DNA from: a virus
Reading direction: 5' to 3' (one strand)
DNA length: 64,000 bases
IMG/VR virus record: IMGVR_UViG_3300036861_000995
The first letter of the stretch is position 1; each line of letters starts with the position of its first letter. The notes beneath the pieces are model-generated. The model saw only the letters and a list, made by a program, of their open reading frames with translations, did no database searches and was not told the DNA's origin. This document shows, in pieces, positions 7,420 to 43,471 of the stretch. The position numbers and the translations under genes were made by a program.

Positions 7420-7420
7420 G

Positions 7421-10975: not shown

Positions 10976-10979
10976 TCGA

Positions 10980-17118: not shown

Positions 17119-18612
17119 TTACGCGGGCACGGTGGGGAAGAGACTGATGCCGATCGAGGTGCCGAAGAAGCTGTCCTGGAACGCCTCGCCGCTCAGGGCC
17201 ATGGTCACGGACTCGTTCACCGGGAAGCTCAGGGCTCCGTCGCCGAGGGTGAGCGACGGGAGGTCGATGCCGATGGCGCCGTCGTCGTTCTTGAGCAGCG
17301 TGTCCATCGTCACCGTCTCGTTGTTCCGGATGGCCGACGCGACCGCGACGGATGTGAAGAGGATCTCTCCCTCCAGGTCGACGAGGAAGAGTCCGTTGTT
17401 CATAAAGACGGCGCCGAGGGTCCCGATGCACTTCTCGGGGGCGACCTCGTTGTTCAGGGTCAGCGATACTTCCTTGAAGCATGTCGTCAGGCCCGTCTCG
17501 TCGACCTTCTGCACCCGCAGGCGCAGCACGTCCGAGGAGGTGTTGTAGGCGCCCGTCTGGAGCGGCTGAACGGGCGTCGAGGCGTTGGTCGCTCTGGTCG
17601 TTGTCGGCGCCGGGGTGTCGGTGCCGACGAACCCGAACTCCACGGTAGCCTTGTCGGCGAGCTGTAGGTTCAGGACCATCTCGTTCGCGAGATTGCCCTT
17701 CGGGTAGATGTAGGCGTCCGCCGGGCCGATCTCGACGTTCAGGTTCGGCAGGGCGAGCTCGAACGTGAAGCTGCGCGTCAGGAAGCTGGCGCTCGCCGTC
17801 GAGACGTTCTTCAGGAAGAGCCCGAAGAGCAGGTCGACCGTGTCGCCGGTGCCATTGTCCGCGGCCAGCGTGCTCGAGAGCTTGTCCAGGGTCAGGACGG
17901 TCGCGGAGACCGTGCGCACCCGTCCGTAGCCCTTCCCGGCGGAGAACTGGTTGGCCGAAAGTAAGCCCCCCACGTGGATCAACTGACCGACCTGAATGCC
18001 CATCGCGGAGAAGTCGGTCGTCCCGCTGAGGCGCGTGATGGTCGCGATTCCGGAGGAGATCGCGATGTCGATCGCGGAGGTCGCGAAGCGGAACCCGGCG
18101 ACCTCTAGCAGGGCGTTGGCCGGCGGAGTCTCGGTGACGAGACCTCCGCCGAGGATCGGAATGCTTGTCGTGGTAGCCCCGGTCGTCACCCGCTTCAGGC
18201 CGTTGTTCGCGGAGTTCGTGAACCCGCGGGCGAACACCAGATGTCCGTCCAGGAGCGTGGGACCGGCGGGAACCGTGTAGGCGGTCGTCGATACGGCCGT
18301 AGGGCGTCCGATCGGTCCGTAGTTCGTTCCGCTCCCGTACGTCGCGAAGACGAAGGCCTCCGAGAACAGCACGAAGACGTCCCGAGTCAGGTCGTGCTCG
18401 AAGTTCGCCTGCGAGTCCAGGTCGGTGGTCGTTCCCTTGCGCCGCTGACGATTGGCGCTGATGGGGCGCCGCGGCGTGGTCGTGATCGTGGCCCCGAAGT
18501 CGCCGATGTCGTTCGGCTCCAGGAGGAACCACGTCGGCGATCCCGGCAGTACGCCGAGCGACGACTCGACCGCGACCGCGAGGCTGACGTTGTTTGTCTT
18601 GACTTGTCCCAC
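17119..18612 (-). CDS. major tail (tube) protein, 497 aa, Thr/Ser-rich
   Basis: First large gene after connector genes and before chaperones; no separate sheath gene. Confidence 0.6.
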   Translation of the reverse strand: MGQVKTNNVSLAVAVESSLGVLPGSPTWFLLEPNDIGDFGATITTTPRRPISANRQRRKGTTTDLDSQANFEHDLTRDVFVLFSEAFVFATYGSGTNYGPIGRPTAVSTTAYTVPAGPTLLDGHLVFARGFTNSANNGLKRVTTGATTTSIPILGGGLVTETPPANALLEVAGFRFATSAIDIAISSGIATITRLSGTTDFSAMGIQVGQLIHVGGLLSANQFSAGKGYGRVRTVSATVLTLDKLSSTLAADNGTGDTVDLLFGLFLKNVSTASASFLTRSFTFELALPNLNVEIGPADAYIYPKGNLANEMVLNLQLADKATVEFGFVGTDTPAPTTTRATNASTPVQPLQTGAYNTSSDVLRLRVQKVDETGLTTCFKEVSLTLNNEVAPEKCIGTLGAVFMNNGLFLVDLEGEILFTSVAVASAIRNNETVTMDTLLKNDDGAIGIDLPSLTLGDGALSFPVNESVTMALSGEAFQDSFFGTSIGISLFPTVPA

Positions 18613-18621
18613 TGCTTCCTC

Positions 18622-19038
18622 CTACTTCGTCTCGTCGTAGGTGCACCGCACCTCGACGTTGAACTGCCTGCTCTTCTCGCCCCTTCGCAGGGGAATCTCG
18701 CTCACCTGGCCGTCGTCGAACTCCACTCCGCTCACGCGGCGCCCTTCCAGGATAGCACGCGCGTCGTGGGCGAGCGAGGCTCCGAGCCTCATGCCGCCCT
18801 GCGTCGCGGGCACGAAGACCTGCACGAAGGCGCCGGCTCGGCGACGATACTTCCTCGATCCAGTCGGCCCCAGCGTGAGCTGCCCACCGCCGAGCTGGCG
18901 GAAGCTCAGTCGCGCCCAGGACGCGCCCGGACCGGGCTCCTTGAAGGGCTCGCCCTCGAGCTCCAGCGCGGCCACGCCCTGGTCCCACTGGTCCAGAAAC
19001 TCGTCGTAGATCGCCCTGCGAGCCTCGTCGGGCGTCAC
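18622..19038 (-). CDS. tail terminator / tail completion-like protein (138 aa)
   Basis: Synteny directly upstream of major tail protein. Confidence 0.4.
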   Translation of the reverse strand: MTPDEARRAIYDEFLDQWDQGVAALELEGEPFKEPGPGASWARLSFRQLGGGQLTLGPTGSRKYRRRAGAFVQVFVPATQGGMRLGASLAHDARAILEGRRVSGVEFDDGQVSEIPLRRGEKSRQFNVEVRCTYDETK

Positions 19039-22523: not shown

Positions 22524-23426
22524 TCAGGCTACGCCCTCCGTCGCGGGGGCGCTAGCCCTCGTGACGACGCGGCAGCGGCACCCGAAGCGATCCTCGCCCG
22601 GGGCGAGAGGATCTCCGGGGAACCGTAGCTGGTTCCCGAGCCCGGACACGAACGGCTCGTCTCCCTCTCGCTCCTGGCCCTCCATGGCTCGGTGGTGCCC
22701 TCGAACCTTCGAGTCTCGACGAGTCCGCCAGCGCCTGGTGACCGACTCCGCCTCGATCAGGCCCGCGTCCACGGCCTGCCGGAGGGCCTCCCGGAGGCCG
22801 CCGTTGATCGCGGCCTGGCCCTCGGCGAGGGCCAGCGAGGAGGCGCGAGCCAGCAGCAGGCTCGCCGCCTGAGACTCGAGCATCCTCGCCGTCGGCGGCC
22901 GGCGCTCGACCTCGCCCTCGAGGGGGCGGTCCAGAACGCCCGCGAACCGGGAGAGCGACTCCACCTGCGGCGCCGTCAGCCCTACGGACAGGACGACCAG
23001 GAGCGCCACTCGCTCGAGGGGCGCGGTCGCTCCGGACGAGGACAGGGCGGCGCGGACAGCCTCCCTCTGGGCGACCGAGAGCCCGGACAGGATCCTGTCC
23101 GACTCCTCGCGGAGCTCTCGCGCCAGCTCGTCGACCGAGTGGTCCAGGGCGGGCAGCTCCCCCATCTGACGGGCGACCTCCTCGGCCGTATCCCGGAGGA
23201 CGGCCAAATAGGCCGCCTGGTAGGCGGACACCACGAGGACCGCCGCGTCCCCGAAGCGGTCCGCGATCTCCTCCTCGCGTCCCAGGGCCACGAGCCTCTC
23301 GACCTCGCGCAGGTCGAGGCCCTCTCGGGCGGACCTCGCGGCCCGGACCACCGCGCGGCGAATCTCGATCTCGGCGCGCGCCAGGAGGCGCTCGAGGCGC
23401 TCCTCGGAGTCGACGAAGTCGGTCAT
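22524..23426 (-). CDS. phage head morphogenesis protein, Mu F / SPP1 gp7 family
   Basis: C-terminal signature RTRRDSKVRGHHRAMEGQ...FPGDP...CRCRV typical of Phage_Mu_F. Confidence 0.8.
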   Translation of the reverse strand: MTDFVDSEERLERLLARAEIEIRRAVVRAARSAREGLDLREVERLVALGREEEIADRFGDAAVLVVSAYQAAYLAVLRDTAEEVARQMGELPALDHSVDELARELREESDRILSGLSVAQREAVRAALSSSGATAPLERVALLVVLSVGLTAPQVESLSRFAGVLDRPLEGEVERRPPTARMLESQAASLLLARASSLALAEGQAAINGGLREALRQAVDAGLIEAESVTRRWRTRRDSKVRGHHRAMEGQEREGDEPFVSGLGNQLRFPGDPLAPGEDRFGCRCRVVTRASAPATEGVA

Positions 23427-23800
23427 CCTCGGCAGGCGCAGAGGTAAACGGCCCGAGCGGGGTCGGTGGAGACGCCGTCGCCCACGATCTCGAGCTGCTC
23501 GCCCAGGATCTTGATCCGATCTCCCGGGGCGGGGGTGATCCCGCGCGGCAGGGTGTCACCCACGATCAGGACCAGTCTCCCGGACTGCTGGGTCTCCGAT
23601 CCCTGCCTCCGCGTCTCCTCGGAGTTGTCCTCCAGGGCGCGGCAGGGGTAGGTCTTGTACGAGATGGCGAGGCCGGCCGTGGAGTCCGCCGAGTCGCGCT
23701 GCCCCGCGACCTGCTTCAGGAGCTGGGCCCGCGGCAGGCCGCGCGCCACGGCACGCCGAACCTGACCGCTGACGTCCTGGCCGAACAGGCGAACTCCCAC
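23423..23800 (-). CDS. hypothetical protein (125 aa)
   Basis: ORF with codon bias in late operon. Confidence 0.4.
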   Translation of the reverse strand: MGVRLFGQDVSGQVRRAVARGLPRAQLLKQVAGQRDSADSTAGLAISYKTYPCRALEDNSEETRRQGSETQQSGRLVLIVGDTLPRGITPAPGDRIKILGEQLEIVGDGVSTDPARAVYLCACRG

Positions 23801-24388
23801 CTACGGGAGCCCTCCGAGCAGGCTGAACTGGTCGTCGTCGTCGAACTGGGAGCAGTCGCAGGTCCCGAAGTCCTCGGCAGCGCCCTCGCTCGTAGCCGCG
23901 CCGGATCCGGCGAGGAACGGGGCGAGCAGGTCCTGGATCCGGGGCGGGAACCGCGTGATCGGCAGGAAGGCGCCCGGGGCGAAGTTCTCCACCTCGACCG
24001 AGCCGGCCCTCACGCGCCTGACCGCGGTCGCGGCCGAGCTGATCTGGGCCTCGAGCTCCGGGTCCTGCGAGACCTCGAAGGTGAGGAGGGCGTGGGCCTG
24101 CCTCACGTCCTCGGGCGTAGTGTTCGCCGCCAGGGCGGTGCCGTATCGGTCGGTCAGGCCATCGCGCGGAAAGGCCCTGGTCTGGGTCGGCGGCTGGCTG
24201 GTCGGCGTGCCCTCGTACCGAACCTGGTCCATCAGCAGGGTGGCCGAGATCGCCGAGCGAATCTGGTCGTCGGGATCGACGGACTCCCACAGGGCCGCGG
24301 CCCGGATGGAGTCTCCGAGCCTCGTGTTGAGGGCCGCGATCAGGTTGTAGGTGTTCCCCGCGGGACCGTCGTTCAGGGGCGTGGGCAT
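23801..24388 (-). CDS. hypothetical protein (195 aa)
   Basis: ORF with codon bias in late operon. Confidence 0.45.
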   Translation of the reverse strand: MPTPLNDGPAGNTYNLIAALNTRLGDSIRAAALWESVDPDDQIRSAISATLLMDQVRYEGTPTSQPPTQTRAFPRDGLTDRYGTALAANTTPEDVRQAHALLTFEVSQDPELEAQISSAATAVRRVRAGSVEVENFAPGAFLPITRFPPRIQDLLAPFLAGSGAATSEGAAEDFGTCDCSQFDDDDQFSLLGGLP

Positions 24389-24392
24389 AAGA

Positions 24393-24800
24393 TCAGGCGT
24401 TGGTCACGTTGGGCAGGACCGAGAGGACCCCCGTCGCGGCTACGACCGGGTTCCCGAGCGAGTCGAACACCTCGAGCTCGTGGTAGTAGTCCCGGGGAGC
24501 GGAGAGATCGTCGGTGTCCGTTTCGTCCAGGATCACCTCGAGCTTCCCCTGCGTGGCGTCCGTCTTGACGACCTTCGTCGGGTGCGTCGTGGAGTTGAGG
24601 TCGATCACCGGGGTCGCCACGATCGGATCGCCCTGCGCGTTCAGCCGGGCGATCGCGTACTTGATGAGGTAGGTCGTGATGTCCAGGGGCGGCTCCCCCG
24701 CCGCGTCCTCATCGAGGACCGTGAACCGCAGCACCACGCGGTTGTTCCTGTAGATCGTCGCGTCCTGGCCAGTCTTCGCCACCTCAGAAGCTCCCCTCAA
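24393..24800 (-). CDS. hypothetical beta-rich protein (135 aa)
   Basis: ORF with codon bias. Confidence 0.45.
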   Translation of the reverse strand: MRGASEVAKTGQDATIYRNNRVVLRFTVLDEDAAGEPPLDITTYLIKYAIARLNAQGDPIVATPVIDLNSTTHPTKVVKTDATQGKLEVILDETDTDDLSAPRDYYHELEVFDSLGNPVVAATGVLSVLPNVTNA

Positions 24801-25958
24801 GATCGTAGACGGACTGCCTGGAGGCGTCGAGGGACGCCGTCCCGAGCCGTCCGGCGAGCAGCGCCGTCGCGAGGCGACGGCCGGCCTCCAGGACGACGAG
24901 GTCGAAGATGGCCTGGGCGTCCGTCCCGAAGAGCACCGCCTCCGGCACGGTAACCTGCCCGGTCGCGACGAAGCGCTCCAGGGCGGCGCCGGACAGCAGG
25001 GCCCTCGGCACGACTAGCCCGCCCTGGGCCCGGAAGATCAGGAGGGCCGACCCCGCCAGAGCCGCCCGGGTCGCTGCCAAGGCTCCCGAGCTCGAGAACC
25101 TCTCGGCCGCGGAGCCGGCCACGATCGCTCCGTCGAAGGCGAGCGCTCCGGAGGCGGAGAACCTCTCGAGCGCGGAACCGGAGAGGACCGCGTCGAAGGA
25201 CGCAGCTCCTGAGGCGGAGAACCTCTCCAGGGCCATCCCCGAGAAGGCCGCGGGCCCGGCGCTGAGACTCCCCGTCGCGGAGAAGCGCTCGAGGGCGACG
25301 GCCGACAGCACGACGACTCCGACCGAGATGCCTCCCGCCCCCGTGATCTGATCTCCGACCGTCGTGGTGGCCTGTCCCGAGAGCGCGGTCGGCGGCTCGG
25401 TGATGGAGCCGCTGGCCAGGAACTTCTCTAGGGCCTGACCGGAGAGGACCGTAGGCGACTGAGAGAGCGATCCCGAGGCGAGGAACCTCTCCAGAGCCTG
25501 ACCGGAGAGGGCCGTCGGCGACTGAGAGAGCGCTCCGCTGGCGAGGAATCTCTCCAGCGCCTGACCAGAGAGCGCGGTCGGCGGCTCGGTGATGGAGCCG
25601 CTGGCCAGGAACTTCTCTAGGGCCTGACCGGAGAGCCCGGTCGCGGCCTGCTGGAGGCCGCCCGAGGCCGCGAATCTCTCCGCCGCCTGGCCGGCGAGCA
25701 GGGCCGGCGACTCCTGGATGGAGCCAGAGGCGGAGAACCTCTCCGCCGCCTGTCCGGCCAGCGCAGCGACTGCCAACTGAGTGGCTCCGGAGGCGGAGAA
25801 CTTCTCCGCGGCGGAACCCGACAGGGCCGCGGGGCGAGCGGTAATCCCGCCGTCGGCGGAGCGGGGCGGCTTCGGGGAGAAGTTCCCCGTGCCCCTCTGA
25901 ACGCCGCGGTTCCGCCTGACCGTCGGCGGTCGGCGGTGGACCCAGGCCCGGAAGAACA
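24784..25958 (-). CDS. tandem-repeat fibrous protein, about 16 units of a 21-aa repeat (consensus SGQALERFLASGSxSxxPTAL)
   Basis: GTG start right after stop of upstream gene with GGAGG RBS; DNA shows near-identical 63-nt tandem units (e.g. copies at 25379 and 25568, 189 nt apart). Confidence 0.6.
25020..25830 (-). repeat. 63-bp (21-codon) in-frame tandem repeat array inside the repeat-protein gene
   Basis: Direct reading: repeated ...gagagcgcggtcggcggctcggtgatggagccgctggccaggaacttctctagggcctgaccggagag... units. Confidence 0.7.
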
Positions 25959-26414
25959 CTACACCTCCGCGAAGGTGACGCGGGCGGTCAGCGTGATGCC
26001 GTCGGCGACGGAGGGGATCCTGAAGGCGATGATGCCTCCAGGGGGCACGTAGATGCGCTCCTCGGGGATCGGCTGGTAGAACCACCCGTTCGCCACGGGA
26101 AAGCTCTCCTCGATCACCTCGGTCACCGTGCCGCCCGCGGTCGTATTACTGACCTCGGCCGTGGCGGACGAGGCCGGGTCGTTGCTGTTGTGCTTGGCGG
26201 GGGTCTGGGACGATCCGTTGGAGCCGGAGGTGGCGTAGCGGCGAATCAAGATCCGCAGGTGCTCCGCGTTGGCGTCTCCAGCGTCAGCCGTGCCGACCTG
26301 CCCGATGAAGGCGGACAGGATCAGGACGCCGGTCGTTGAGCCGGCCGTGATCTCGACCATGTCCTGGGCACCCGAGACGGCGACGTTGGGCTGGGTGACC
26401 GTGTAGACGCGCAT
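25959..26414 (-). CDS. hypothetical protein (151 aa)
   Basis: ORF with codon bias; stop abuts GTG of repeat protein. Confidence 0.45.
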   Translation of the reverse strand: MRVYTVTQPNVAVSGAQDMVEITAGSTTGVLILSAFIGQVGTADAGDANAEHLRILIRRYATSGSNGSSQTPAKHNSNDPASSATAEVSNTTAGGTVTEVIEESFPVANGWFYQPIPEERIYVPPGGIIAFRIPSVADGITLTARVTFAEV

Positions 26415-26474
26415 TCTCTCTCCTCTCGCTCCTGGACTCCAGGGTACTTCCGATTGACCGCTCCAGGGAGGGAC

Positions 26475-27752
26475 CTACATGCGACCAAGAGGGCCGATCG
26501 GCCGCCTCAGGAATGGCGCCGGACTTACCCTGGACTCCCCGATGGCCAACATCGCGATGAACCGAGTGGCGCTGACCGCGTCGTTCACGTTGATCCGAAC
26601 GCCCGTCGAGATGAAACTGACGAGGGACGCGGCCCAGTCGTGGTCCGTGTCGGAGTTCAGGATGTCGACGACGTTCGAGTTCGAGGCGATGTCCTGCGAG
26701 TCGGACACGGACTGGTTGTCTCGCGAGTTCATCCCGACCGAGGCGGCGGCCGAGGCCGAGCTGGCCCCGCCGAGGCTGAGATTGCCCTGGCCGCTGCCAA
26801 TCGTGTTCACCGACGCGACGCGGACCGCTCCGAGGAGCATCGCAATAGGCTTGAAGCCGGGATCGGTGATGTCCTTGTCCCCGCTCGTGGCCGTCAGGCT
26901 GGGGGCGCCTGCCCAGCAGGGCAGCCCGCCGACCGCCAGGGCGAGGTACATCGCCTGCATGGCGACGGCGGCGTTCCGGGTCGTGATCGTGTACGTGGTG
27001 GTGTCGAAGCTGGCCTCGAGCCGAGTGCCCTCAGTCACGGTGCCGCTCGAGGACGAGAGCTTCGTCACGATCGCGTCGTTCCGTATCAGGACGCCCATCG
27101 ACGTCGCCGTGCTGAAGTCGTTTTCCGCGACCCAGGCGCTGCACGCCTGAGTAACCGAGCTCAGTCTCCCGGCGTAGCCGACCGAGATCATCCCTCCGGC
27201 CCCGTTCCCGTCGGCGACGAAGTCCTGGCCGACGGAGACTCCGATCAGCGCGTCGGGCTGGAACCCCGGCGCTGAGGCCGGATTCGCGGTGCCCCCAATG
27301 GAGGACGAGGACGCGAAGCTCGCGACGTGGACCTGAAGGTCGTCGCCGTAGAAGAGGATCACGAAGCCGCGCAGAGTGGTCGCGGCCGACCAGTTGATTA
27401 CGACCTCGTCGAGTCCGAAGCTGACCCACGCCGCCTCGACGTCCAGGCTTCCTCCGCCCGTGGCGGGCATCTGAAGAATCGTCGCCGTGTCGATTCTGTA
27501 CGCCGAGTCGGCCACTGCGGCCAACTGAGTATTCTCGGCCATGACGCCTACCGATCGCTGAGTCGTCCCGTCCGTCATGCCGACGCTGACGCGCGCCGAG
27601 CTCCCGACGATCGTGTCCAGCGATGTCGCGCCCGAGAGGAAGAAGACGGCGGCCTTCGGCGTCTTACCGAGCGCGGCCGAATCCGTGATGGTCTGGTTCC
27701 CGCTCGCGTTGTTGCCCTGGAAGGGGACTACGCTGACGAAGACGTCCGTCAC
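26475..27752 (-). CDS. hypothetical Ser/Thr/Gly-rich beta-type protein (425 aa), possibly structural
   Basis: Composition; located in late operon. Confidence 0.5.
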   Translation of the reverse strand: MTDVFVSVVPFQGNNASGNQTITDSAALGKTPKAAVFFLSGATSLDTIVGSSARVSVGMTDGTTQRSVGVMAENTQLAAVADSAYRIDTATILQMPATGGGSLDVEAAWVSFGLDEVVINWSAATTLRGFVILFYGDDLQVHVASFASSSSIGGTANPASAPGFQPDALIGVSVGQDFVADGNGAGGMISVGYAGRLSSVTQACSAWVAENDFSTATSMGVLIRNDAIVTKLSSSSGTVTEGTRLEASFDTTTYTITTRNAAVAMQAMYLALAVGGLPCWAGAPSLTATSGDKDITDPGFKPIAMLLGAVRVASVNTIGSGQGNLSLGGASSASAAASVGMNSRDNQSVSDSQDIASNSNVVDILNSDTDHDWAASLVSFISTGVRINVNDAVSATRFIAMLAIGESRVSPAPFLRRPIGPLGRM

Positions 27753-29074
27753 GGCAGCACGGCCGAGTCTGACCAGGACCGCATTGAGGCAGCGTCGGCC
27801 AGATACGACGAGTCCAGGATCCGGTTCACGAGCTCGGAAGGGTCGAGGGCTAGGTCGTAGAGCTCCTCGCGGTCGAAGCTCTTGTCACCGTCGTCGTCCA
27901 GTCGCCGAAGCTTGAGCTGGTGACCGACCGCCGTGGCGCCCGACCGAGCGACGACTCCCACGTCGCCCTCGGGCTCGCCCCACTTGGCCCCGCACAAGAC
28001 CATGTCGTGCGGTGGCGCGTGTGCTAGGCCGTCCAGGATCGGTACCAGCGAGACCGAGGCCGTGGGGAACGGCAGACCCGTCGGGAGCGAGTACCCGCCG
28101 AGCTCGATGATCGTGGACCAGAGGTCTACGGCGTGCACGAGCTCGCCGCTGACGACGCCCTGGAGCACGGGCCCTCCGCAGACGACCAGCGGGACTCGCA
28201 CTCCGCGCTCGAAGGACGTCGCCTTGGCCTTGCCGGGATCTGGAGCGACCTGCGGCGGCGTGCCGTTGTCCCCCACCACGATGACCACGGTCGTCTGCAG
28301 GTCGACGAGGCCGAGCATCGCCGCGAGCATCCGGTCGTAGGCAACGATCATCGCCTCGAAGCGCTGGCGCTGCGTCGTCGGCGGTGGGTAGCCGATCGGC
28401 AGCATGTCAGGCGGCGGGACGTGGAAGGGAGAGTGCGCCAGGTTGCAGCAGACGACTGTGAGGCTCGGCTGCGGCGCCGAGGGGAAGCCGGAGATGAAGG
28501 AGTCGCGGAGCGCCCTGGGCTCGTAGACCAGTGAGCGCACCTCGGCGCACGTCGGCGGAGAGACGCGGCCGGTGACCCGGTCCCAGCTCATGTAGCTGGT
28601 GCCGTTGCACGCCTGGACGTTTCCCCGGATTCCCTGCAAGTGGAACTGGTAGCCGTCCTCGATCGCGGCGCACAGGGCCTGCCCAGTGATGGGCCCGACG
28701 CCGAGGTGCCACTTGCCGAAGATCGCGGACGAGTGGAGCGGCATGGCCTCCGGCAGGAAGACCTCGCTAGCGAGGGGCGTGTTCGGCTCGATCCCGTCCG
28801 AGCATCCCTCTCCGTTGCCCGTGGCCCACCAGTGCCCGGTCTGGATCATCCTCCGCGTGGGAGAGCATGTCGGGGAGGCGTAGGCGTCGTCGAAGCGGAC
28901 TCCAGCGCCAGCGAGCGCCTCGATGTTGGGAGTCGAGACCGGACCGCCGTAGAGGGCCAGGTCGGCCGCCGCCACGTCGTCGAGCACGACGAGGACGACG
29001 GAGAACGCGGGTCCCGGGGACGACCGAGCCACCTCGCCGCGTGCGGCGAGGGCCAGCATCGCGGCGGCGAGCAC
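27749..29074 (-). CDS. secreted formylglycine-type (Cys-type) sulfatase
   Basis: N-terminal signal peptide; metal-binding VVLDD; signature CSPTRRMIQTG (C-x-P-x-R...TG); conserved GKWHLG. Confidence 0.8.
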   Translation of the reverse strand: MLAAAMLALAARGEVARSSPGPAFSVVLVVLDDVAAADLALYGGPVSTPNIEALAGAGVRFDDAYASPTCSPTRRMIQTGHWWATGNGEGCSDGIEPNTPLASEVFLPEAMPLHSSAIFGKWHLGVGPITGQALCAAIEDGYQFHLQGIRGNVQACNGTSYMSWDRVTGRVSPPTCAEVRSLVYEPRALRDSFISGFPSAPQPSLTVVCCNLAHSPFHVPPPDMLPIGYPPPTTQRQRFEAMIVAYDRMLAAMLGLVDLQTTVVIVVGDNGTPPQVAPDPGKAKATSFERGVRVPLVVCGGPVLQGVVSGELVHAVDLWSTIIELGGYSLPTGLPFPTASVSLVPILDGLAHAPPHDMVLCGAKWGEPEGDVGVVARSGATAVGHQLKLRRLDDDGDKSFDREELYDLALDPSELVNRILDSSYLADAASMRSWSDSAVLP

Positions 29075-29077
29075 GGC

Positions 29078-29500
29078 TCAGGACTCCGGGACCGTCACCG
29101 TGAAGGACGTGACCGAGACGATCGCGCCCGACGATATGGCCGTGGAGTTGAAGTTGAGCTCGGAGCCGCTGACGGCACACGCGCCCTGGATCTCGCTCGT
29201 GCCGTCCGACTGAACCATCCGGAAGAACGTCGCCGTGCCGGTGGCGTTGGCCGAGGTGTCGTCCGAGATGGCAGACGCCGTGGCCCGCGCGCCGGGGTTG
29301 AGATCGGCCGCCGCCCCGAAGGCCGGGTCCGACATGGTCAGCTCGGCGAGCAGGGTCTGCGCTCCGAGCGCGGCGTCGGCATCCGCCGGGACTGACCCGG
29401 CGTAGATCCTCAGCAGCGCCGCGCCGGTGCCCAGGTCCAGACGATCGACGATCGCGTCGCAGGCCGCCTTGGCGGCATTGTTCGAGATGAAGCCGGTCAC
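29078..29500 (-). CDS. hypothetical protein (140 aa)
   Basis: ORF with codon bias. Confidence 0.4.
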   Translation of the reverse strand: MTGFISNNAAKAACDAIVDRLDLGTGAALLRIYAGSVPADADAALGAQTLLAELTMSDPAFGAAADLNPGARATASAISDDTSANATGTATFFRMVQSDGTSEIQGACAVSGSELNFNSTAISSGAIVSVTSFTVTVPES

Positions 29501-29736
29501 TTGGAGTCACCGCCCTCCGCGAGGAGAGCCGCGATCTCGGCGGCCCTGGGGTGGTCGGCGGGGATCCGCAGCACGGGGACCGGCCTGGAGGCCGGAAGGG
29601 CGCCCGTCCCGGCGCAGCGGTCGCACTGCGCGGGGCCCTCGTAGGCCGGCGCGTCGCCGTGAGCCTCCGAGCGAGCGATGATCGCCTGGTTACGGCCCGT
29701 GGCCCCGCAGTCGGGGCAGGGAATCTCTCTCCTCAC
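29497..29736 (-). CDS. small CxxC...CxxC zinc-ribbon protein
   Basis: CPDC...CDRC. Confidence 0.4.
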   Translation of the reverse strand: MRREIPCPDCGATGRNQAIIARSEAHGDAPAYEGPAQCDRCAGTGALPASRPVPVLRIPADHPRAAEIAALLAEGGDSK

Positions 29737-29962
29737 GTAGTCTCTCCTCCTCGTCGATCCTGGCTCTCGCCTCCGCGTACCCCGGGTCGCCCGGGTTCAG
29801 CACGCAGACTGTACCACTCACGCGCACCTCCGGGCAGTGCACGTCTCCCTGGACCAGGCCGAGGCCCGCGCACACGTCGCAGGCGCGAACCGTCTGGGTT
29901 CCAAGGATCACGTCGATGTCGCGAACGCGACCAGAGCCACGGCAGGCGGGGCAGCTCCTCAC
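29690..29962 (-). CDS. small zinc-ribbon protein
   Basis: CPAC...CDVC...C. Confidence 0.35.
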   Translation of the reverse strand: MRSCPACRGSGRVRDIDVILGTQTVRACDVCAGLGLVQGDVHCPEVRVSGTVCVLNPGDPGYAEARARIDEEERLREERDSLPRLRGHGP

Positions 29963-30164
29963 GTCGGCACGTCCTCCGCCCCGGGGTAGGAGGCGAGGCG
30001 CCGAAGCGTCTCCTCAGTGAGGTGCTCGCGGTCGACCACGAGGAGACGCTCGGCTCGATGCCGGTAGCTTCGCGGGAACGCGGTAGCCACCACGGCGCCA
30101 GACAGCTCCTCGCGGCTGGAGCGCAGGGCGCAGGCCTGCTCGAACGTTGGCGCGAGTATGAGGA

Positions 30165-31589
30165 TCATTCTTGGGGTCCTTGAATTGGTGATGGCTCCGG
30201 ACGGAGCGAGGGCGCCCCGGCCACCGCCTGCTCGGCGGCGAGCTCGGGGTCCGGGATCGTGATAGGGTCCTGAAGGCCCAGGATCTGGCGCACGTCGTGC
30301 ACCGCCGGGTCGTCCGGCATGATCGTGGCTCCGGCGCGAGCGAGTCGCTCGAGGGCGGCCGTGACCTCCTCGACGTCGCGGAACTCGAGCCGATCGGTCT
30401 TGATTCTCGGTCGAGACTCGTCCGGCCAGCCGTTCAGGCGCCAGATCGGCCCGATCACGTCCTTCTCGAACTGCTGGCGCATCTCCTGCAGGGCCGAGTC
30501 GATGACGATCGCGAAGTTGCGCGACTTGTCCTTGCTCATCGCGAAGGAGCCGACGCCGTTGTCGCCGAGCAGGAGCTGCTCGATGCCGAGCACGCGCGCG
30601 ATCTCGCGATTGACGCGCTCGATCGCGCGAAGGACCTCGGGCTGGCTGGTCGCCTCGGCCCGCAGCAGGTCCACGTCCCACTTGCGCTCGGAGGAGGGCC
30701 GCCGCGTCTCGAGGTCCTCGTAGGTGACCGAGTCCAGCAGGAGGCCGAGCGCCGGGTTGCGCACGTGCCCCTGGAGGAACTTGCGCAGGCCGGAAAGGGC
30801 CTCATCAGCCTGCGCGTCGTTGATCTCGCCTGACTTGACCAGCTCCTGCAGCTTCGCGAGCGGGGCCCGTCCTACCGGGATGCCGCGCAGGTCGGTCTCG
30901 AACCCCCAGCCCTCGAGCTGCTCGTAGCGCTTGAGCCTGCGCACGGACTCGACGATGTGCCGGAAGAGTCCCGCGCCCTCGGGCGAGTCCGAGATCGAGT
31001 CGTCGACGAGGTAGACGAGCTTCCAGCGCGGGAGGTAGATGTCGAGGCCGGTGCTCGGGGAGCGCTGAACGACGCCGAAGACCTCGCCGTGCTCGCCCAC
31101 GTCCCACTGCTCGATCGTCGACTGCGGGCGAGCGGCGATGTTCCTGACGCCCACGGCGCCGTCCGGCCGGCGGTAGGCCGTCCACTCCTGCACGCTGAAC
31201 CCGTGGAACCTGTACAGGGCCGCGCGTCGCACGACCTTCTGCCAGGGCGTGCTCATGTCCGGCGAGTGGAGCATGTCCGTCGCCCGCTCGGCCAGAAGAT
31301 CCGCCCCGGCGACGCCCTCGGGCGGCTCGAGCCGCCACTCCGGGCGGCTGACGAGGTTCAGGAAGTACCGCACGCCGGCCGCCACGATCGATACGTTCGC
31401 CAGCGCGTTCGCGTACGTGCGGTACTTGTTCGACCCGACGAGCTCGCTGCTCGACTCGTTGTCCTGGATGTAGCCGCCGAGGACGGCGGTCCCCGAGACG
31501 CCCGTCTCCGCGAGCGGAAAGCTGCGCGGCTCGCCCCGTATCGAGGGCGGCACCCGAGAGATGTCGGGCGTCGACGGTATCTGGGGCAT
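30165..31589 (-). CDS. portal protein (474 aa)
   Basis: Size and position downstream of terminase large subunit; call is by synteny. Confidence 0.6.
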   Translation of the reverse strand: MPQIPSTPDISRVPPSIRGEPRSFPLAETGVSGTAVLGGYIQDNESSSELVGSNKYRTYANALANVSIVAAGVRYFLNLVSRPEWRLEPPEGVAGADLLAERATDMLHSPDMSTPWQKVVRRAALYRFHGFSVQEWTAYRRPDGAVGVRNIAARPQSTIEQWDVGEHGEVFGVVQRSPSTGLDIYLPRWKLVYLVDDSISDSPEGAGLFRHIVESVRRLKRYEQLEGWGFETDLRGIPVGRAPLAKLQELVKSGEINDAQADEALSGLRKFLQGHVRNPALGLLLDSVTYEDLETRRPSSERKWDVDLLRAEATSQPEVLRAIERVNREIARVLGIEQLLLGDNGVGSFAMSKDKSRNFAIVIDSALQEMRQQFEKDVIGPIWRLNGWPDESRPRIKTDRLEFRDVEEVTAALERLARAGATIMPDDPAVHDVRQILGLQDPITIPDPELAAEQAVAGAPSLRPEPSPIQGPQE

Positions 31590-31597
31590 CTAAGGCC

Positions 31598-32119
31598 CTA
31601 CGACTTCTCGGACGCCGCCTCTGACTCGGGGCTCGAGTGACGAGCGCCGAGGCCCTTGAGCAGGTCTCCGGCGGCGACCAGGATCTGCCCCCTGGAGATG
31701 CTCCTGACGGCGCTCCCGTAGTGGCGACGCACGCGGCGAGACCCGGCCACCTTGAGCAGCTCCACGGCCACGGCCCCGAGGCCGTAGGGAAGAAGCCCGT
31801 TGAGCGGCTGAGCGCGGCCCTCGATGACCTTCGACTCGACCTGCGCGAGCTGGGCCTCCGCGTCGCTCAGGCGCCGGCCGGCCTCCTCCTGAAGCCCGGC
31901 GGCCTCCTGGTCGTCCTCGTCGCCGGGAGTCAGAGTGGCCTCCTCGGCCAGAGCCTGGGCCGCTCCCAGGTCCCTCTCGGCCTGCTCCGCGGCCTGCTGG
32001 GCGGCGTCGAAGGCCTGGAGCAGGTCGGGGCGCTCCTCGCGAACGTCGTCGCGGACTATCGAGCACGCGACGAGGGCCAGGAGGAGAGGGAGAGCGAGCG
32101 CGACGAGGGGGATCTTCAT
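31598..32119 (-). CDS. lipoprotein (lipobox LVAC) with coiled-coil region, inserted between terminase and portal
   Basis: MKIPLVALALPLLLALVAC signal/lipobox; ATG 11 nt after TerL stop. Confidence 0.55.
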   Translation of the reverse strand: MKIPLVALALPLLLALVACSIVRDDVREERPDLLQAFDAAQQAAEQAERDLGAAQALAEEATLTPGDEDDQEAAGLQEEAGRRLSDAEAQLAQVESKVIEGRAQPLNGLLPYGLGAVAVELLKVAGSRRVRRHYGSAVRSISRGQILVAAGDLLKGLGARHSSPESEAASEKS

Positions 32120-32129
32120 CAGGGCGATC

Positions 32130-33665
32130 CTATTCGATGGGCTCCAGGGGGACAAGCTCGGCCGCGGCGCCCACGGACGCGACTCGCGTCCTCAGGAGCC
32201 TCGCGTAGGCCCGGGAGGCGGCGTCCACCTGGTCCTTGAACTGGCCGGCGGGGAACACGGCGAGCTCCGACAGGAACCTGTCGGTCCAGGGCGCGCTGAC
32301 CACGAGCACGTTGCCGATCTCGACCTGGCTGGCGAGCGGCCTGGCGCGGTCCTCCTTGGAGCCGGACTCCAGGGAGAAGTGGAACGAGTAGCCGTCGAGT
32401 AGCTGGGCGAGGTCCGACTTCTGGGCCAGGCCGGCCTGCCCGGGGTCCTGCGGGATGTCCTGCACGCAGCCGCGGCCGTCCCTCTCGGCGCAGCGCCGGA
32501 TCAGCGAGCGCACCTCGCCCGGGGAGAGCCTGTCGCGGACGACGTCCGTGACGTAGTAGCGGACGCGGCCGTCCTGCACGACCCGACGCATCTTGAGGCC
32601 GACGGTGTAGGCGGCGCGGCCGTCCTTGCTCGCGGCGAGGTCCCAGCCGCGGACGTCCTCTCCGGGGGGAACCTCGTGGGCGTGGACCCTCTGGACCTGG
32701 TCGCGCTTGAACATGCCGCCGCCCCTGGGGGCGGGTCGCTGCTGGAGCTGGCCGGAGATCGCGTACTCGCCGCCCCACGAGCGCAGCGTGGGCTTCAGGT
32801 TCGTCTCGAGGTAGTCCCTCGGGAATCGCTCTGGGAAGAGGAGCTCGCCCTCCTTCGTGCGCGGGTCCCTGAAGTTCAACCTCGTGCGCGAGGGGTGCGG
32901 GTGATCGGGCTCGTGCTCCATCGGCAGGATCAGGCGGTCCCAGATGCCGGCGGGGTCGTTCGCGAGCACGTGCCCGGGAATGTCGCGCTCGTCGAGGCGC
33001 TGAGCGATGACGACCATCGCCGACGTGGCCGCGTCGTTGATGCGCGTGGGAATGACCTCGGTCCACCACTGGAGCATCTCGGCGATCTTCGCGTCGGAGC
33101 CGGCGTCCGCCGCCGAGAGCGCGTCGTCGACGATGACGCGGTCGCCACGCTCGCCCGTGCCCGTGCCGCCGACGGAGGTCGCGAGCTTCCAGCCGGTCTG
33201 CAGGGTGTCGAACTTCGTCTTCGCGCGCTGGTTCGGGTCGATCTGGACCCTGTCGCCCCAGAGCCGCCGGTAGCTCGGCGACTCGAGGATCGCCAGGCAC
33301 TTGCGGTTGTCGCGGATCGTGAGGTGCTCGGCGTAGGCGGCCGTGAAGTAGCGGTGATGCGCCAGGTTCCTCGGTCCCATCTCCCACGCGGGCCAGAAGA
33401 CGTTGGTCAGGAGCGACTTCGAGAATCCCGGGGGCACGCAGATCAGGAGGTGCCGGATGAGGCCGTCGGTGACCGCCTCGAGGTGTCGGGCTATCGCCTC
33501 GAGGGCCCAGCCGCGCACGAGTCTCCTCCCGGGCTCGACCACGGGCCACATGAGCTCCATGAACTCGATCAGACTTCGCTCGGCCCTCGGGCGGGCGAGC
33601 ATCAGGCGCGCGTCGTCGGGATTGGCCGCGGCCCAACGGAGTATCTGGTCGGGCGACGGGCTCAC
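32130..33665 (-). CDS. terL: terminase large subunit
   Basis: Walker A VPPGFSKS, Walker B VIVDD, C-terminal nuclease region. Confidence 0.9.
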   Translation of the reverse strand: MSPSPDQILRWAAANPDDARLMLARPRAERSLIEFMELMWPVVEPGRRLVRGWALEAIARHLEAVTDGLIRHLLICVPPGFSKSLLTNVFWPAWEMGPRNLAHHRYFTAAYAEHLTIRDNRKCLAILESPSYRRLWGDRVQIDPNQRAKTKFDTLQTGWKLATSVGGTGTGERGDRVIVDDALSAADAGSDAKIAEMLQWWTEVIPTRINDAATSAMVVIAQRLDERDIPGHVLANDPAGIWDRLILPMEHEPDHPHPSRTRLNFRDPRTKEGELLFPERFPRDYLETNLKPTLRSWGGEYAISGQLQQRPAPRGGGMFKRDQVQRVHAHEVPPGEDVRGWDLAASKDGRAAYTVGLKMRRVVQDGRVRYYVTDVVRDRLSPGEVRSLIRRCAERDGRGCVQDIPQDPGQAGLAQKSDLAQLLDGYSFHFSLESGSKEDRARPLASQVEIGNVLVVSAPWTDRFLSELAVFPAGQFKDQVDAASRAYARLLRTRVASVGAAAELVPLEPIE

Positions 33666-34985: not shown

Positions 34986-35005
34986 AGTCCCAAGACTGGG
35001 ACTCA
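34986..35005. promoter_or_regulatory. perfect palindrome GAGTCCCA-AGAC-TGGGACTC (8-4-8), candidate operator upstream of gene starting 34937
   Basis: Read directly from the sequence. Confidence 0.4.
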
Positions 35006-35049
35006 CAGAATGCACCCTCACCGATGGGGGGTCAGGGGTCGTGCTTCCA

Positions 35050-35704
35050 GCGAAACATGGCATCCTTTATATGGGACTGTAGGCGGTGCGGTAGGCGGGG
35101 GTGGTAGGGGGGTGGGCATGGGCGGGTAGAATGGGGATACCTGGGCCTGTAATATTTACCTTCTTCTAATAGTAATAAGAGGTGATACTGGTGATAGGGG
35201 TTCAGGACCTTATCTGACAAGGACTTGCGACGACACCACCATTCACCGACGTCACAGAAAAACGAAACGAGAAGCGTAATCGAATTGTAAAAAAATGTGA
35301 AAAGTGGCAATTGTGCAACGACCTGGACCACGCAAGGCCCGCCGGGGGTGTTCGATCTCTAGGAAAATCCTTCCAGTTCGGAAGCCTTTTCTCACTCGAG
35401 ACCAAAGGAGTTACGTCGCTCGGAAATCCTAAGGACGGCTCATTGGCATGGTATTTGAGTATGCCGCTTGCGTTACCATCCGCTCGGATGGTAACAGGCC
35501 TGGGACTAGCGCCGTGGCCGATCTTCGCCCCTTGCGATGCTGACGGCTCATGTCGTGCCAGGCCTTGGGAAGGAATGCTAGTCCGGCCCGATGTTTCGCG
35601 ATGAGTGACTCCTAGGGCAGGGCGAGGCCTCCATGGGCAGGGGGGAGGGGGTACTTCCCCCTCTCTTCCTCGCTGGCATCGACCCATCTCCAACTTCCGT
35701 TGCA
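35050..35704 (-). ncRNA. candidate large structured noncoding RNA in a ~1 kb low-GC island, transcribed from the CCGATATTAG motif at 35704-35717
   Basis: ~55% GC versus ~69% elsewhere; no GC3 bias in any frame; multiple perfect hairpins (e.g. 35472-35495 gttaccatcc/ggatggtaac); upstream promoter motif shared with four genes; flanked by terminator (36001-36043) and next gene's operator. Confidence 0.25.
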
Positions 35705-35717
35705 TTCCACTAATATC
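35704..35717 (-). promoter_or_regulatory. conserved motif copy 1 (minus strand CCGATATTAGTGGAATG)
   Basis: Member of 5-copy family CCGATAT(A/T)AG. Confidence 0.4.
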
Positions 35718-36000
35718 GGCCTTAGCGATACCGCCAAGGCCGATTTCGCCCGAGGAGCCGTAATGGGGGATTGGGGCCTATTGACGTTCTCTCCTTCCCT
35801 ATAGGCTCACTGCCAGGCTACTAGTAGCGGAGAGGGTACTGGGTCAGGAACAATCACCAATGGCGACTCCTCGAAATGGAGGAGAGAGACGCCAACTAGC
35901 ATTACCGAGCCCCGTTTTCCCTCCGTTTCCTCGCACTAGCCCCTGGTACACCACGGGCCCCCACTACCCCACAACGCTCGCCCTAGGCTCGCCAGACGAC

Positions 36001-36043
36001 CCAAAATGCAAGAAGGGGCTGGAGACCCAACGTCTCCAGCCCC
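36001..36043 (-). terminator. rho-independent terminator: 12-bp GC stem (GGGGCTGGAGAC/GTCTCCAGCCCC) then TTCTTGCATTTTGGG
   Basis: Read on minus strand downstream of 68-aa gene. Confidence 0.65.
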
Positions 36044-36063
36044 TCCCATGGGCGAGCTCGGCG

Positions 36064-36270
36064 CTAGACCAGGAACACGGGCACGCGTCCCTCGCCCCTG
36101 TCGCTCCGCTCCGTCTCCTCCTCGCGGGTCCGCATCCTCTTGATGCGCCGGCGCATGTCGAGCTCGGCCAGCACGGCCTGGCGCTCCGTGCGGTTCTGGG
36201 CTTCACAGAAGTCGATGTCCGCCAGCATCCGCTCGAGGTCTCGCGCGTCCCGGATCGTGTACTTGACCAT
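36064..36270 (-). CDS. small charged helical protein (68 aa, MVKYTIRDARDLERMLADIDF...)
   Basis: ATG with GGGAGCCTAGAC RBS motif and CCGATATAGTGG motif 39 nt upstream; followed by terminator. Confidence 0.55.
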   Translation of the reverse strand: MVKYTIRDARDLERMLADIDFCEAQNRTERQAVLAELDMRRRIKRMRTREEETERSDRGEGRVPVFLV

Positions 36271-36308
36271 GTCTAGGCTCCCTTGTGTGGTCGCACGATT
36301 GCGACGTC

Positions 36309-36320
36309 CCACTATATCGG
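36309..36320 (-). promoter_or_regulatory. conserved motif copy 2 (CCGATATAGTGG)
   Basis: ~39 nt upstream of ATG at 36270. Confidence 0.45.
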
Positions 36321-36472
36321 TCGGGCCCCCTGGAGGTTGGAGGAATCCTCCATTTTCCGAAGGCCGCGCGAACGCCCCCGCTGCAGCTACCGTCGCGCCC
36401 GCCTTGGGCCAGGCCTACGGGGCGGAGCGAGGAGCGAGAGTAGCAGAGCGACGATAGCCCGTCCTAGCGAGC

Positions 36473-36745
36473 TCACGACTCGTGCTCCTCGGATCCCTCG
36501 GATCCCTCGTCTCCCCATGCCTCTGGCGTTTCCCCGTTCGCGCCATAGGCCAGGCAATCCACGCACACTAGTAGGTGCCCGATCCTTTCGCCGTACATGT
36601 AATGCGCCGGGTACCTGTCTCCACTGAGACTCGACTCGCACACGTCGCATGACGACCAGGAGAAGCTCCCCTGGTCCGCAATGGCACGCGCAGTCTCTGG
36701 CTCCGGGTCCCATGCGAGAGCGATGGTCCATGCCAGTACATCAAT
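36473..36745 (-). CDS. possible TraR/DksA-like C4 zinc-finger protein (start uncertain)
   Basis: CDVCESS...(18)...CVDCLA pattern in C-terminal half of track ORF 36473..36970. Confidence 0.3.
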   Translation of the reverse strand: MDVLAWTIALAWDPEPETARAIADQGSFSWSSCDVCESSLSGDRYPAHYMYGERIGHLLVCVDCLAYGANGETPEAWGDEGSEGSEEHES

Positions 36746-37076
36746 AGTCTCGGGGACTTCTTTCCCGTGAGCCAGAGGAATCCGGAGTAGCTGCCCTCCG
36801 TTCGGATCCTCGGCCGCGAGAGGCGAGGATAACCCCTCGTTCGATGGTACTCCGCTGGAGCGCGCGTGTATGCACTCTGCGAGCTCTCCCTCGGGCGCCC
36901 GCGGATCGGACCGGCACTCAGAGCTGCAGCCCTGTGCCGACCTGGTCCGAGCAGAGCTCGGGCTGTTCACTCCCTACCCCGTCGGCACCCTAGCAGTACG
37001 GCCAGGATGAGCGCCAGGATTGCCGCCAGGGCGTACACCCCGGCTCCGAGGCGGTCGGGCGCGCGCTTCTGGAGAC

Positions 37077-42116: not shown

Positions 42117-42169
42117 TCGGTGTTTTCTCCTTAGCCCTCGTGAGGCTTACGGCGATACCCTACCTGTCC

Positions 42170-43307: not shown

Positions 43308-43356
43308 TGGAGGCGGCAGTGGGATTCGAACCCACGATAGCGGATTTGCAATCCGC
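43308..43356 (-). tRNA. partial tRNA-Cys(GCA): anticodon stem-loop, variable loop, T-arm, acceptor 3' strand and CCA only; probable attP/att core
   Basis: Minus strand reads GCGGA-TTGCAAA-TCCGC TATC GTGGG-TTCGAAT-CCCAC TGCCGCC T CCA; no matching 5' acceptor strand or D-arm upstream. Confidence 0.55.
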
Positions 43357-43471
43357 GACCTCAGCGACGCAACTCCCATTCTGTAAACGACTTACGAAGC
43401 GACTCTATTCGATCCCCACGCCTAACGACATCTACTTGAAGCATCGCTCCTCATCGAATAGCACAGTCGGC

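Follow-up and report, generated by a model that had tools for sequence, protein, structure and literature searches.

The IMG/VR virus record IMGVR_UViG_3300036861_000995 contains, on the minus strand at positions 27749..29074, an open reading frame (ORF) of 441 aa with a GTG start. By sequence and modelled fold, the product of this ORF is predicted to be a catalytically competent type-I (S1, formylglycine-dependent) sulfatase. We analysed the whole 64,000-nucleotide stretch, which is called the window here. It is a phage genome with genes mostly on the minus strand. The sulfatase gene lies in the structural (late) operon, and its stop overlaps the start of a gene encoding a jelly-roll protein (26475..27752, minus strand), which we call the partner. 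We give about even chances to the reading, the likeliest of those considered, that a late-expressed, host-matured and exported sulfatase works with a fibre- or lectin-like particle protein, and that their target is a sulfated glycan in the envelope of the host or in its matrix.

Sequence and fold of the sulfatase

The preliminary description of this DNA named a sulfatase signature, and all of the motifs that it quoted are present: DD at residues 32-33, CSPTRRMIQTG at residues 70-80 and GKWHLG at residues 120-125. The family alignment places the formylglycine motif, C-S-P-T-R, at residues 70-74 (28853..28867, minus strand). The ORF was compared with Pfam, and PF00884 (Sulfatase) matched with an E-value of 1.2e-18 and 68 bits, well above the gathering score of 25. 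Residues 26-328 pair with positions 3-301 of the 301-position profile, so the match covers the full profile and is far beyond chance. A weak match to SGSH_C was also seen. Among the PHROG families, the sulfatase matched phrog_19870 (function unknown) with an E-value of 9.5e-23, mainly through its N-terminal 105 residues. This family is a loose grouping of viral sulfatase-like proteins that carries no annotation. With NCBIfam, the matches were only far sub-threshold, and the top one, choline-sulfatase, scored 49.7 bits against a cut-off of 433. Because of this, the sulfatase is not an equivalog of a characterised enzyme.

The catalytic Cys and the metal ligands, whose conservation the preliminary description had left to an alignment, are kept throughout the family. 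In an alignment of 33 members with 36-54% identity, D32, D33, C70, R74, K121, H123, H214, D269, N270 and K284 are invariant, and P72 is kept in at least 90% of the members. The same ten catalytic and metal residues are found in all 18 viral copies, 13 of which are partner-linked and five of which are on other viral contigs. The motifs also align with their equivalents in PsS1_19B in a phmmer alignment. C70 is the residue predicted to become the catalytic aldehyde (formylglycine).

An AlphaFold2 (AF2) model was built from the family alignment and had a predicted local distance difference test (pLDDT) score of 93.8 and a predicted template modelling (pTM) score of 0.92. The protein is laid out as a hydrophobic leader (residues 1-24) and a two-domain sulfatase fold (residues 25-441). 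With Foldseek, the model superimposed over its full length on many S1 structures, with template modelling (TM) scores of 0.70-0.75 over ~460 columns. The best structural neighbour was the exo-4S-kappa-carrageenan sulfatase PsS1_19B (6psm), with a TM score of 0.75 and 22% identity. The next were the human 4-sulfatase, an S1_16 enzyme and E. coli 3ed4, and all of the top neighbours are carbohydrate or aryl sulfatases. Structures from S1_19, S1_15, S1_16 and S1_8 gave similarly weak sequence matches, with E-values of ~1e-13 to 1e-15. Since identity to solved sulfatases is only ~20%, no substrate can be inferred.

A sulfatase of this type needs a maturase to form the aldehyde. Neither a formylglycine-generating enzyme (FGE) nor anSME was found in the window when nearly all ORFs of at least 120 aa were scanned with Pfam and PHROG. 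Since no such enzyme was found, maturation of the sulfatase would have to be carried out by the host, as the preliminary description had expected.

Leader and cysteine pairs

The N-terminal leader, MLAAAMLALAARGEVARSSPGPAF (29003..29074, minus strand), is signal-peptide-like and lacks a basic n-region. It has a hydrophobic core of ~10 residues, and Arg12 and Arg17 follow the core. In the AF2 model, residues 2-18 form a detached helix with a pLDDT of 50-70. A leader of the form ML/IAALLLxLAQ is found in nearly all relatives, phage-borne and cellular alike. Some members (P0011/L008) have clearly canonical signal peptides, such as MPRSAVLALLALLAWLMGATAAHAQRR. The copy at locus L010 has a lipoprotein-like leader, and the phage copy at L019 has none. 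It is plausible that the leader of the window sulfatase is a signal peptide.

Two pairs of cysteines covary perfectly in the 33-member alignment. C91 and C156 are both present in 32 members and both absent in one, while C135 and C176 are both present in 16 and both absent in 17. No member has a single cysteine of either pair. This is the pattern expected for two disulfide bonds, which we infer the protein may form. Taken together, the family-wide hydrophobic leader and the covarying cysteine pairs point to an extracytoplasmic enzyme.

The jelly-roll partner

The junctions on both sides of the sulfatase gene are tight. The GTG start is preceded at a distance of 9 nt by a GGAG and comes 3 nt past the stop of the preceding gene, and the sulfatase stop and partner start overlap in the sequence GTGA. 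The partner is a protein of 425 aa. Its AF2 model, built on a nine-sequence alignment, had a pLDDT of 84.3 and a pTM of 0.88 and is all-beta, with three tandem jelly-roll domains in a pseudo-trimer. Profile-profile comparison gave the triplication a probability of 96-98%. The model resembles C1q/TNF single-chain trimers and also gave matches to tail-fibre and tailspike domains. Its likeness to C1q/TNF-type jelly-roll trimers and to the receptor-binding heads of phage fibres is one of fold, not of membership.

The window partner had no Pfam or PHROG match, and no relatives of it were found in deposited phages. A full HMMER search of 1.84 billion representatives showed that the family is large. 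At 50% identity it comprises 7,294 clusters, and 2,274 of these matched with an E-value of 1e-30 or below. Pfam did not match any of the nine family members that were scanned, which included long ones. The ~410-aa partner module is N-terminal in 137 of 152 sampled members and is followed by C-terminal extensions of variable length. Members range from ~410 aa to more than 2,400 aa (up to ~2,500 aa), and the module is internal in one giant protein of 5,429 aa. Based on the model, we infer that the partner is a pseudo-trimeric binding or anchoring module that is probably displayed on the particle.

Two other roles for the partner were considered and ruled out. It is not the major capsid protein, since an HK97-like capsid gene at ~19669-20676 matches the capsid gene of Shewanella phage S0112. 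It is also not an FGE or anSME maturase, as it has no Pfam match, an all-beta jelly-roll fold and only two cysteines.

One phage contig without a sulfatase shows a different neighbour for the jelly-roll gene. At L120:5575-10469, a 718-aa gene with weak Metallophos and pectate-lyase matches lies upstream of the partner gene. A 73-aa gene separates the two, and a BNR/sortilin-repeat protein is encoded downstream. This locus hints that glycan-active enzymes often accompany the jelly-roll gene.

Pairing and origin of the sulfatase

The identical protein is encoded on a JGI contig of 72.9 kb, and relatives of the sulfatase were found in uncultivated phages. The viral and genome scans were run on peptide patterns, and the locus numbers given here are those among the matches listed. 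At least 26 IMG/VR loci carry the sulfatase in the peptide-pattern scan. About 75 proteins are at least 40% identical to it, with a coverage of at least 88% for nearly all of them, and many are on contigs of 45-66 kb. The neighbourhoods of the homologues are phage virion modules in independent samples. At L004 and L002, the gene order is Portal_Mu, Mu_F, sulfatase, tail terminator, tail tube and tape measure, with other genes in between. In contrast, a tblastn search of 50,697 deposited phage records gave three weak N-terminal matches, none in a convincing phage. The earlier statement that sulfatases are rare in phages is therefore right for the deposited records. Among uncultivated phages the gene is not unique, as phrog_19870 and the IMG/VR loci demonstrate.

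A profile screen for the partner covered 120-odd loci. The partner gene is next to the sulfatase gene in 12 of 17 distinct phage-type loci that have a family-level sulfatase and is directly downstream on the same strand in 10. By comparison, it is next to the sulfatase gene in 0 of 80 loci from species-representative bacterial or archaeal genomes. Most of the paired phage loci have no other detectable protein in common with the window.

A neighbour-joining tree of 105 sulfatases, which is crude and distance-based, places 11 of 12 partner-linked copies and four of five other viral copies in one clade. This viral-rich clade is separate from the bulk of cellular Planctomycetota and Verrucomicrobiota sulfatases, the two groups that supply most of the nearest cellular relatives. 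A few contigs from metagenome-assembled genomes (MAGs) fall inside the clade, three of them labelled Planctomycetota (L035, L036 and L043), and on these contigs the sulfatase is the only protein in common with the phage loci. Several family members come from groundwater or lake metagenomes.

One cellular locus stands out. On a 214-kb bacterial MAG contig (L006:10001-12455), two tandem sulfatases are 38% and 48% identical to that of the window. They have the same short leader and lie beside thioredoxin/TPR and 2OG-Fe(II) oxygenase genes, near the nuo operon. L006 is a cellular foothold of an otherwise phage-borne clade. Judged by these comparisons, phages appear to be the main carriers of the sulfatase lineage, and some copies have been exchanged with cells.

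Position in the late operon and the inserted block

The preliminary description located the gene on the late strand between the portal and head genes, and the layout bears this out. On the upstream side, the Mu-type portal gene is at 30165-31589 (PF06074 Portal_Mu, 69.6 bits; phrog_113, E-value 5.4e-49). On the downstream side are genes for a head-tail adaptor-like protein at 23801-24388 (phrog_477, E-value 3.1e-24; homologous to S0112_066), a head-closure-like protein at 23423-23800, a MuF-like head morphogenesis protein at 22524-23426 and the HK97-like major capsid protein mentioned above. All of these are on the minus strand. The sulfatase gene is thus in the portal-adaptor interval, on the same strand as its neighbours and with coupled junctions.

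This interval is occupied by an accessory block of 5.8 kb (24393..30165, minus strand), which was delimited by comparison with S0112 and L004. In S0112, the adaptor-like gene directly follows the portal gene without interruption, at the junction where the window has the 5.8 kb. L004 has the same backbone as the window and an intact portal/adaptor junction, and there the sulfatase-partner pair is further downstream, between the head genes and a tail-completion gene. L002, which shares the tube and tail genes with the window, has the pair at the same downstream position as L004. The pair is found at differing sites among phages with the same backbone, so the sulfatase and partner genes move as a unit. 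As to whether relatives carry the sulfatase at the same locus, a point raised in the preliminary description, the pairing with the partner is kept, but the site in L004 and L002 differs from that in the window.

A simple consensus scan found no promoter-like sites in 23500-32500. No convincing terminator was found in the block, and minus-strand terminator-like matches downstream of the pair were only inside coding sequence. The G+C content of the block is 0.67-0.71, compared with 0.65-0.72 for the window, and G+C at third codon positions is 0.89 in the sulfatase gene, compared with 0.84-0.95 in neighbouring genes. A search for flanking direct or inverted repeats at the block ends found nothing convincing, only an internal 63-nt array. 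The preliminary description had suggested a moron acquired from a sulfatase-rich host lineage. The insertion relative to S0112 and the Planctomycetota and Verrucomicrobiota affinity of the nearest cellular relatives agree with this. However, the gene has no promoter or terminator of its own, its composition is normal, and its clade is old, is found mostly in phages and comes with a conserved partner. Because of the age of this clade and the conserved partner gene, the sulfatase is not a recent one-off capture.

Other genes of the block

Directly upstream of the sulfatase gene is a gene for a 140-aa homologue of virion proteins (29078..29500, minus strand; phrog_3758, E-value 5.1e-34). Tblastn matches to this protein include Send513 gp34, Milano gp127 and a structural protein of Vibrio phage CKB-S1, and homologues carry the labels "virion structural" or "virion-associated". 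In Mycobacterium phage Send513 the homologue lies beside minor-tail genes, and in Agrobacterium phage Milano it lies beside a putative tail-fibre gene. A homologue is also directly upstream of the sulfatase gene in L002 and L003. We tried to place the 140-aa protein in the solved Milano and 7-7-1 structures without success: the Milano paper does not assign the homologue, and for 7-7-1 no protein is yet assigned to the capsid fibre.

Downstream of the partner gene is a gene for a beta-rich protein of 151 aa (25959..26414, minus strand), to which jackhmmer found matches in related loci. Pfam and PHROG gave no match for it. The possibility that it is a single copy of the jelly-roll domain was rejected, with a probability below 1% by hhalign. 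Its homologue is directly downstream of the partner gene in L008, L010, L117 and L120 by jackhmmer, and L120 has no sulfatase. Because the 151-aa gene follows the partner gene in several loci, including the sulfatase-less L120, the jelly-roll and 151-aa genes look like the core, with the sulfatase as a frequent upstream addition.

The remaining genes of the block lie at its two ends. The first in the block are two small overlapping ORFs of 79 and 90 aa (29497..29962, minus strand), which have two DnaJ-type CxxCxGxG zinc-finger motifs each. PF00684 (DnaJ_CXXCXGXG) matched them with 24 bits, which is under the cut-off. A third zinc-finger-like ORF, with a weak match to the Pfam family GRXCR1/2_C, is in the early region at 38937-39542. 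No homologues of these zinc-finger ORFs were found in related loci. They could be folding or assembly helpers. Toward the other end is an ORF for a tandem-repeat protein with units of ~21 aa (24784..26085, minus strand). Tandem Repeats Finder reported a period of 63 nt and 4.4 copies (repeat family D1/D2), and the ORF has ~16 copies of the 21-aa unit (..LSGQALERFLASGS..). Its listed start overlaps the 151-aa gene, so the true start is probably downstream of 25959. Neither Pfam nor PHROG matched this protein, which is possibly fibrous. The last gene in the block encodes a protein of 135 aa (24393..24800, minus strand), which matches phrog_1084 (function unknown) with an E-value of 4.9e-07 and has no homologue in S0112.

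The phage backbone and other features of the window

The rest of the late genes are also on the minus strand. The large terminase gene is at 32130-33665, the tail terminator gene at 18622-19038, the gene for the 497-aa tail tube protein at 17119-18612, the tape measure gene at 12617-16261 and the distal tail genes at 4060-12617. Identity to S0112 is 44% for the large terminase (TerL), 51% for the portal and 47% for the tail tube. The tail tube is also 48-49% identical to those of the Roseobacter phages RDJL Phi 1, Phi 2 and RDJL6 and 47% identical to those of the Pseudomonas phages KPP23 and RSP. By these protein comparisons, the backbone resembles that of siphophages of Proteobacteria. At the nucleotide level, megablast found no match to isolated-phage relatives for 24 kb of the window. 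The ~500-aa homologue of the tail tube is labelled "major capsid protein" in the records of S0112, RDJL Phi 1/2 and R6L. The S0112 record has two genes with this name. A mis-annotation carried over from record to record is the probable cause.

The phage is temperate-like, with a tyrosine integrase gene next to tRNA-Cys, and also has genes for a serine recombinase, a primase and a DNA polymerase. The integrase gene (42140-43264, plus strand) is directly followed by tRNA-Cys (43308-43374, minus strand), which is likely the attachment-site region. The serine recombinase gene is at 46258-47037. Between the integrase/tRNA and the serine recombinase, at 43675-45966 (plus strand), is a gene for a 763-aa protein with matches to helicase-family and DNA-methyltransferase-family PHROGs. 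An SPFH/Band-7 protein is encoded at 51071-51652. Between the terminase and integrase sides, at 35000-37000, G+C falls to ~0.61 (0.65-0.72 elsewhere) and there are few confident ORFs.

Two observations concern the host. An outer-membrane beta-barrel protein (OMP_b-brl, 35 bits), whose gene is at 54359-54922, may alter the host surface. The presence of this gene implies a diderm host. We also attempted to name the host from source names, but only one bin label was available, Planctomycetota (P0002), whereas the backbone relatives infect Proteobacteria.

Giant proteins with a sulfatase domain

In some phages, sequence matches place a sulfatase domain within large proteins of a tail-type gene block. 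Three low-GC IMG/VR contigs encode such giant proteins, of 1,754 aa (L032:387-5648), 1,708 aa (L033:7262-12385) and 1,523 aa (L034:7835-12403), with Pfam Sulfatase scores of 102-104 bits. Their motifs are intact: CSPTRAAILTGK or CSPSRAAIMTGK, GKWHLGEW and, in L033, MDD. In L033, the two genes that come right after the giant gene match the baseplate-wedge families gp25-like and gp6/J-like. Homologues of these two genes are also present in L032 and L034, and the gene block is conserved in all three. Between L033 and L034, the sulfatase-bearing C-terminal 800 aa are 39% conserved, while the N-terminal part and the gene position differ. This is domain shuffling as is typical of fibre proteins. The L033 protein matches phrog_19870 with an E-value of 3.2e-11. 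The sulfatases of the giant proteins are a lineage distant from that of the window, and they are possibly particle-borne sulfatases in an unrelated phage group.

Proposed role of the sulfatase and its partner

In the reading introduced at the outset, the sulfatase gene would be one member of a mobile accessory block that is transcribed along with the late virion operon. A host enzyme would convert Cys70 to formylglycine, as the phage encodes none. The short hydrophobic leader would then direct the export of the enzyme, and two disulfides would stabilise it. Once out of the cytoplasm, the enzyme would strip sulfate esters from a glycan of the host envelope or the surrounding matrix. The jelly-roll partner is probably displayed on the particle alongside the 140-aa virion-protein homologue, and we propose that this partner binds the sulfated glycan on which the enzyme acts. 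The pair would be a binding protein and a receptor-modifying or receptor-destroying enzyme that may aid adsorption or keep progeny off debris at release. Of the options in the preliminary description, a co-expressed enzyme acting on sulfated glycans appears to be the best fit, given that a fibre- or lectin-like partner is coupled to the sulfatase across many phages and that the giant proteins provide a precedent.

Several observations weigh against the reading of an exported enzyme that acts with its partner. Five of the 17 phage-borne sulfatase copies are without the partner. Most members of the partner family are presumably without a sulfatase, given 7,294 clusters and only a few hundred sulfatases. 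No fusion of the sulfatase and the partner was found among 272 proteins. In the leader of the window sulfatase there is no basic n-region and the hydrophobic stretch is directly followed by Arg, and among the other copies one in a phage is leaderless (L019) and one is lipoprotein-like (L010). Also, export would separate the enzyme from its leaderless partner, and the two would share no compartment until lysis, which leaves the tight coupling mechanistically unexplained.

It can also be suggested, more tentatively, that the sulfatase and the triplicated jelly-roll protein would form a dedicated two-part system on a sulfated glycan receptor, in which one binds the receptor and the other destroys or edits it. 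This suggestion draws on a likeness to the pair of binding and receptor-destroying activities in influenza virus.

The main rival explanation, which we consider doubtful, is that the enzyme is carried by the virion. It would stay in the cytoplasm, dock non-covalently on the jelly-roll protein, capsid or neck and desulfate the receptor glycan at adsorption, with the N-terminal helix as a docking element instead of a signal peptide. This could explain why the gene is located in virion operons and why its stop overlaps with the start of a putative fibre gene, and it would also fit the upstream 140-aa gene, whose homologues carry virion labels. The giant sulfatase-domain proteins of other phages, in a gene block with baseplate-wedge genes in L033, are consistent with it as well. 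In addition, the ML/IAALLLxLAQ leader is unusually conserved for a signal peptide and has no basic residues in most phage copies. However, the identical leader type is present in the clearly cellular relatives beside the nuo operon in L006, and some members have canonical or lipoprotein-type signals. Two covarying disulfide pairs are not expected to form in the cytoplasm, the mature protein consists of the catalytic fold only, with no anchoring domain, and the lack of fusions with the partner among the 272 proteins counts against docking too. The preliminary description had offered virion association as one option, but the leader and the disulfide signature of this stand-alone protein speak against cytoplasmic assembly.

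An improbable alternative is that the sulfatase is a metabolic passenger, either an auxiliary metabolic gene or a moron. It would help the infected cell or lysogen to use sulfated polysaccharides or organosulfates for carbon or sulfur, and its neighbourhood would be a permissive insertion site unrelated to particle function. In favour of this, the block is an insertion when compared with the closest isolate, an integrase and a tRNA mark the phage as temperate-like, and the closest cellular sulfatases come from the polysaccharide-degrading Planctomycetota and Verrucomicrobiota. A review also lists sulfatase among viral auxiliary metabolic genes of deep groundwater (PMC10029852). On the other hand, without a promoter or terminator of its own, the gene would be expressed along with the late structural genes and not in lysogeny. 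The jelly-roll pairing persists over otherwise unrelated phages and differing insertion sites, the clade is mostly phage-borne, the composition is fully ameliorated, and no transporter or glycoside hydrolase was found alongside in the Pfam and PHROG scans. The embedding of the gene in a structural operon, together with its linked partner, argues for a role in infection rather than in metabolism.

Finally, it is very improbable that the protein is a non-sulfatase of the alkaline-phosphatase superfamily. It would then be a transferase or a hydrolase of phosphonate monoesters or phosphodiesters, for example, that acts on phosphorylated envelope components, or else a structural protein whose catalysis is irrelevant. 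In favour of this are the lack of an NCBIfam equivalog (49.7 of 433 bits for choline-sulfatase), an identity of only ~20% to any solved sulfatase and the existence of promiscuous phosphonate-monoester hydrolases among formylglycine enzymes with the sulfatase fold. Against it, all residues of the sulfatase set are invariant, including the sulfate-binding K121, H214 and K284, the top structural neighbours are all carbohydrate or aryl sulfatases, and such strict conservation of catalytic residues speaks against a purely structural role.

Significance and comparison with known systems

The locus is a testable case of an intact, mainly phage-resident sulfatase lineage that would depend on the formylglycine machinery of its host. 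If the proposed role is true, sulfated glycans would be phage receptors or barriers in poorly studied bacteria. The jelly-roll family would also gain its first functional handle, and compact sulfatases would be added to the enzyme toolbox. If the two-part system is true, sulfate-ester hydrolysis, with the giant proteins included, would be a previously unrecognised class of phage host-recognition enzymology, and sulfated surface glycans would be receptors for phages of uncultivated freshwater and groundwater bacteria. If the sulfatase is only a metabolic passenger, the strict gene pairing would still need explaining.

Full-text literature searches did not find a description of a sulfatase in a phage structural module or of sulfate-ester hydrolysis by a phage. 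Two reports do place genes of the sulfatase pathway on viral contigs, like the window: one names "sulfatase" in a list of auxiliary metabolic genes from deep-groundwater viromes (PMC10029852), and the other gives a formylglycine-generating enzyme as an auxiliary gene in Pseudoalteromonas phages (PMC10232697). Both are list entries with no locus analysis. Unlike the Pseudoalteromonas phages, the window phage has the sulfatase and not the maturase.

Compared with known S1 sulfatases, such as PsS1_19B (6psm/6prm), human N-acetylgalactosamine-4-sulfatase (1fsu) and the Pseudomonas aeruginosa arylsulfatase (1hdh), the window enzyme has the same two-domain fold (TM scores of 0.70-0.75), the C-x-P-x-R motif, the metal ligands and the catalytic Lys/His set, and in the proposed reading it would be exported, as are most bacterial members. 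It differs in its identity to solved enzymes of only 18-24%, in being among the smallest (~416 aa when mature) and in having no NCBIfam equivalog. Unlike those of the known S1 sulfatases, its gene lies in a virion operon of a phage and has a dedicated partner.

Glycosidases, lyases and esterases are among the phage enzymes known to cleave or modify the surface sugars of the host. The glycan-modifying enzymes associated with phage particles include tailspike and tail-fibre depolymerases and the esterase tailspikes that remove O-acetyl groups. Unlike these, the window sulfatase is a stand-alone protein with an export-type leader and no virion anchor, and it needs a host maturase. Like them, it is a late-operon enzyme that is predicted to target a substituent of a host glycan, and its gene adjoins that of a fibre-like protein.

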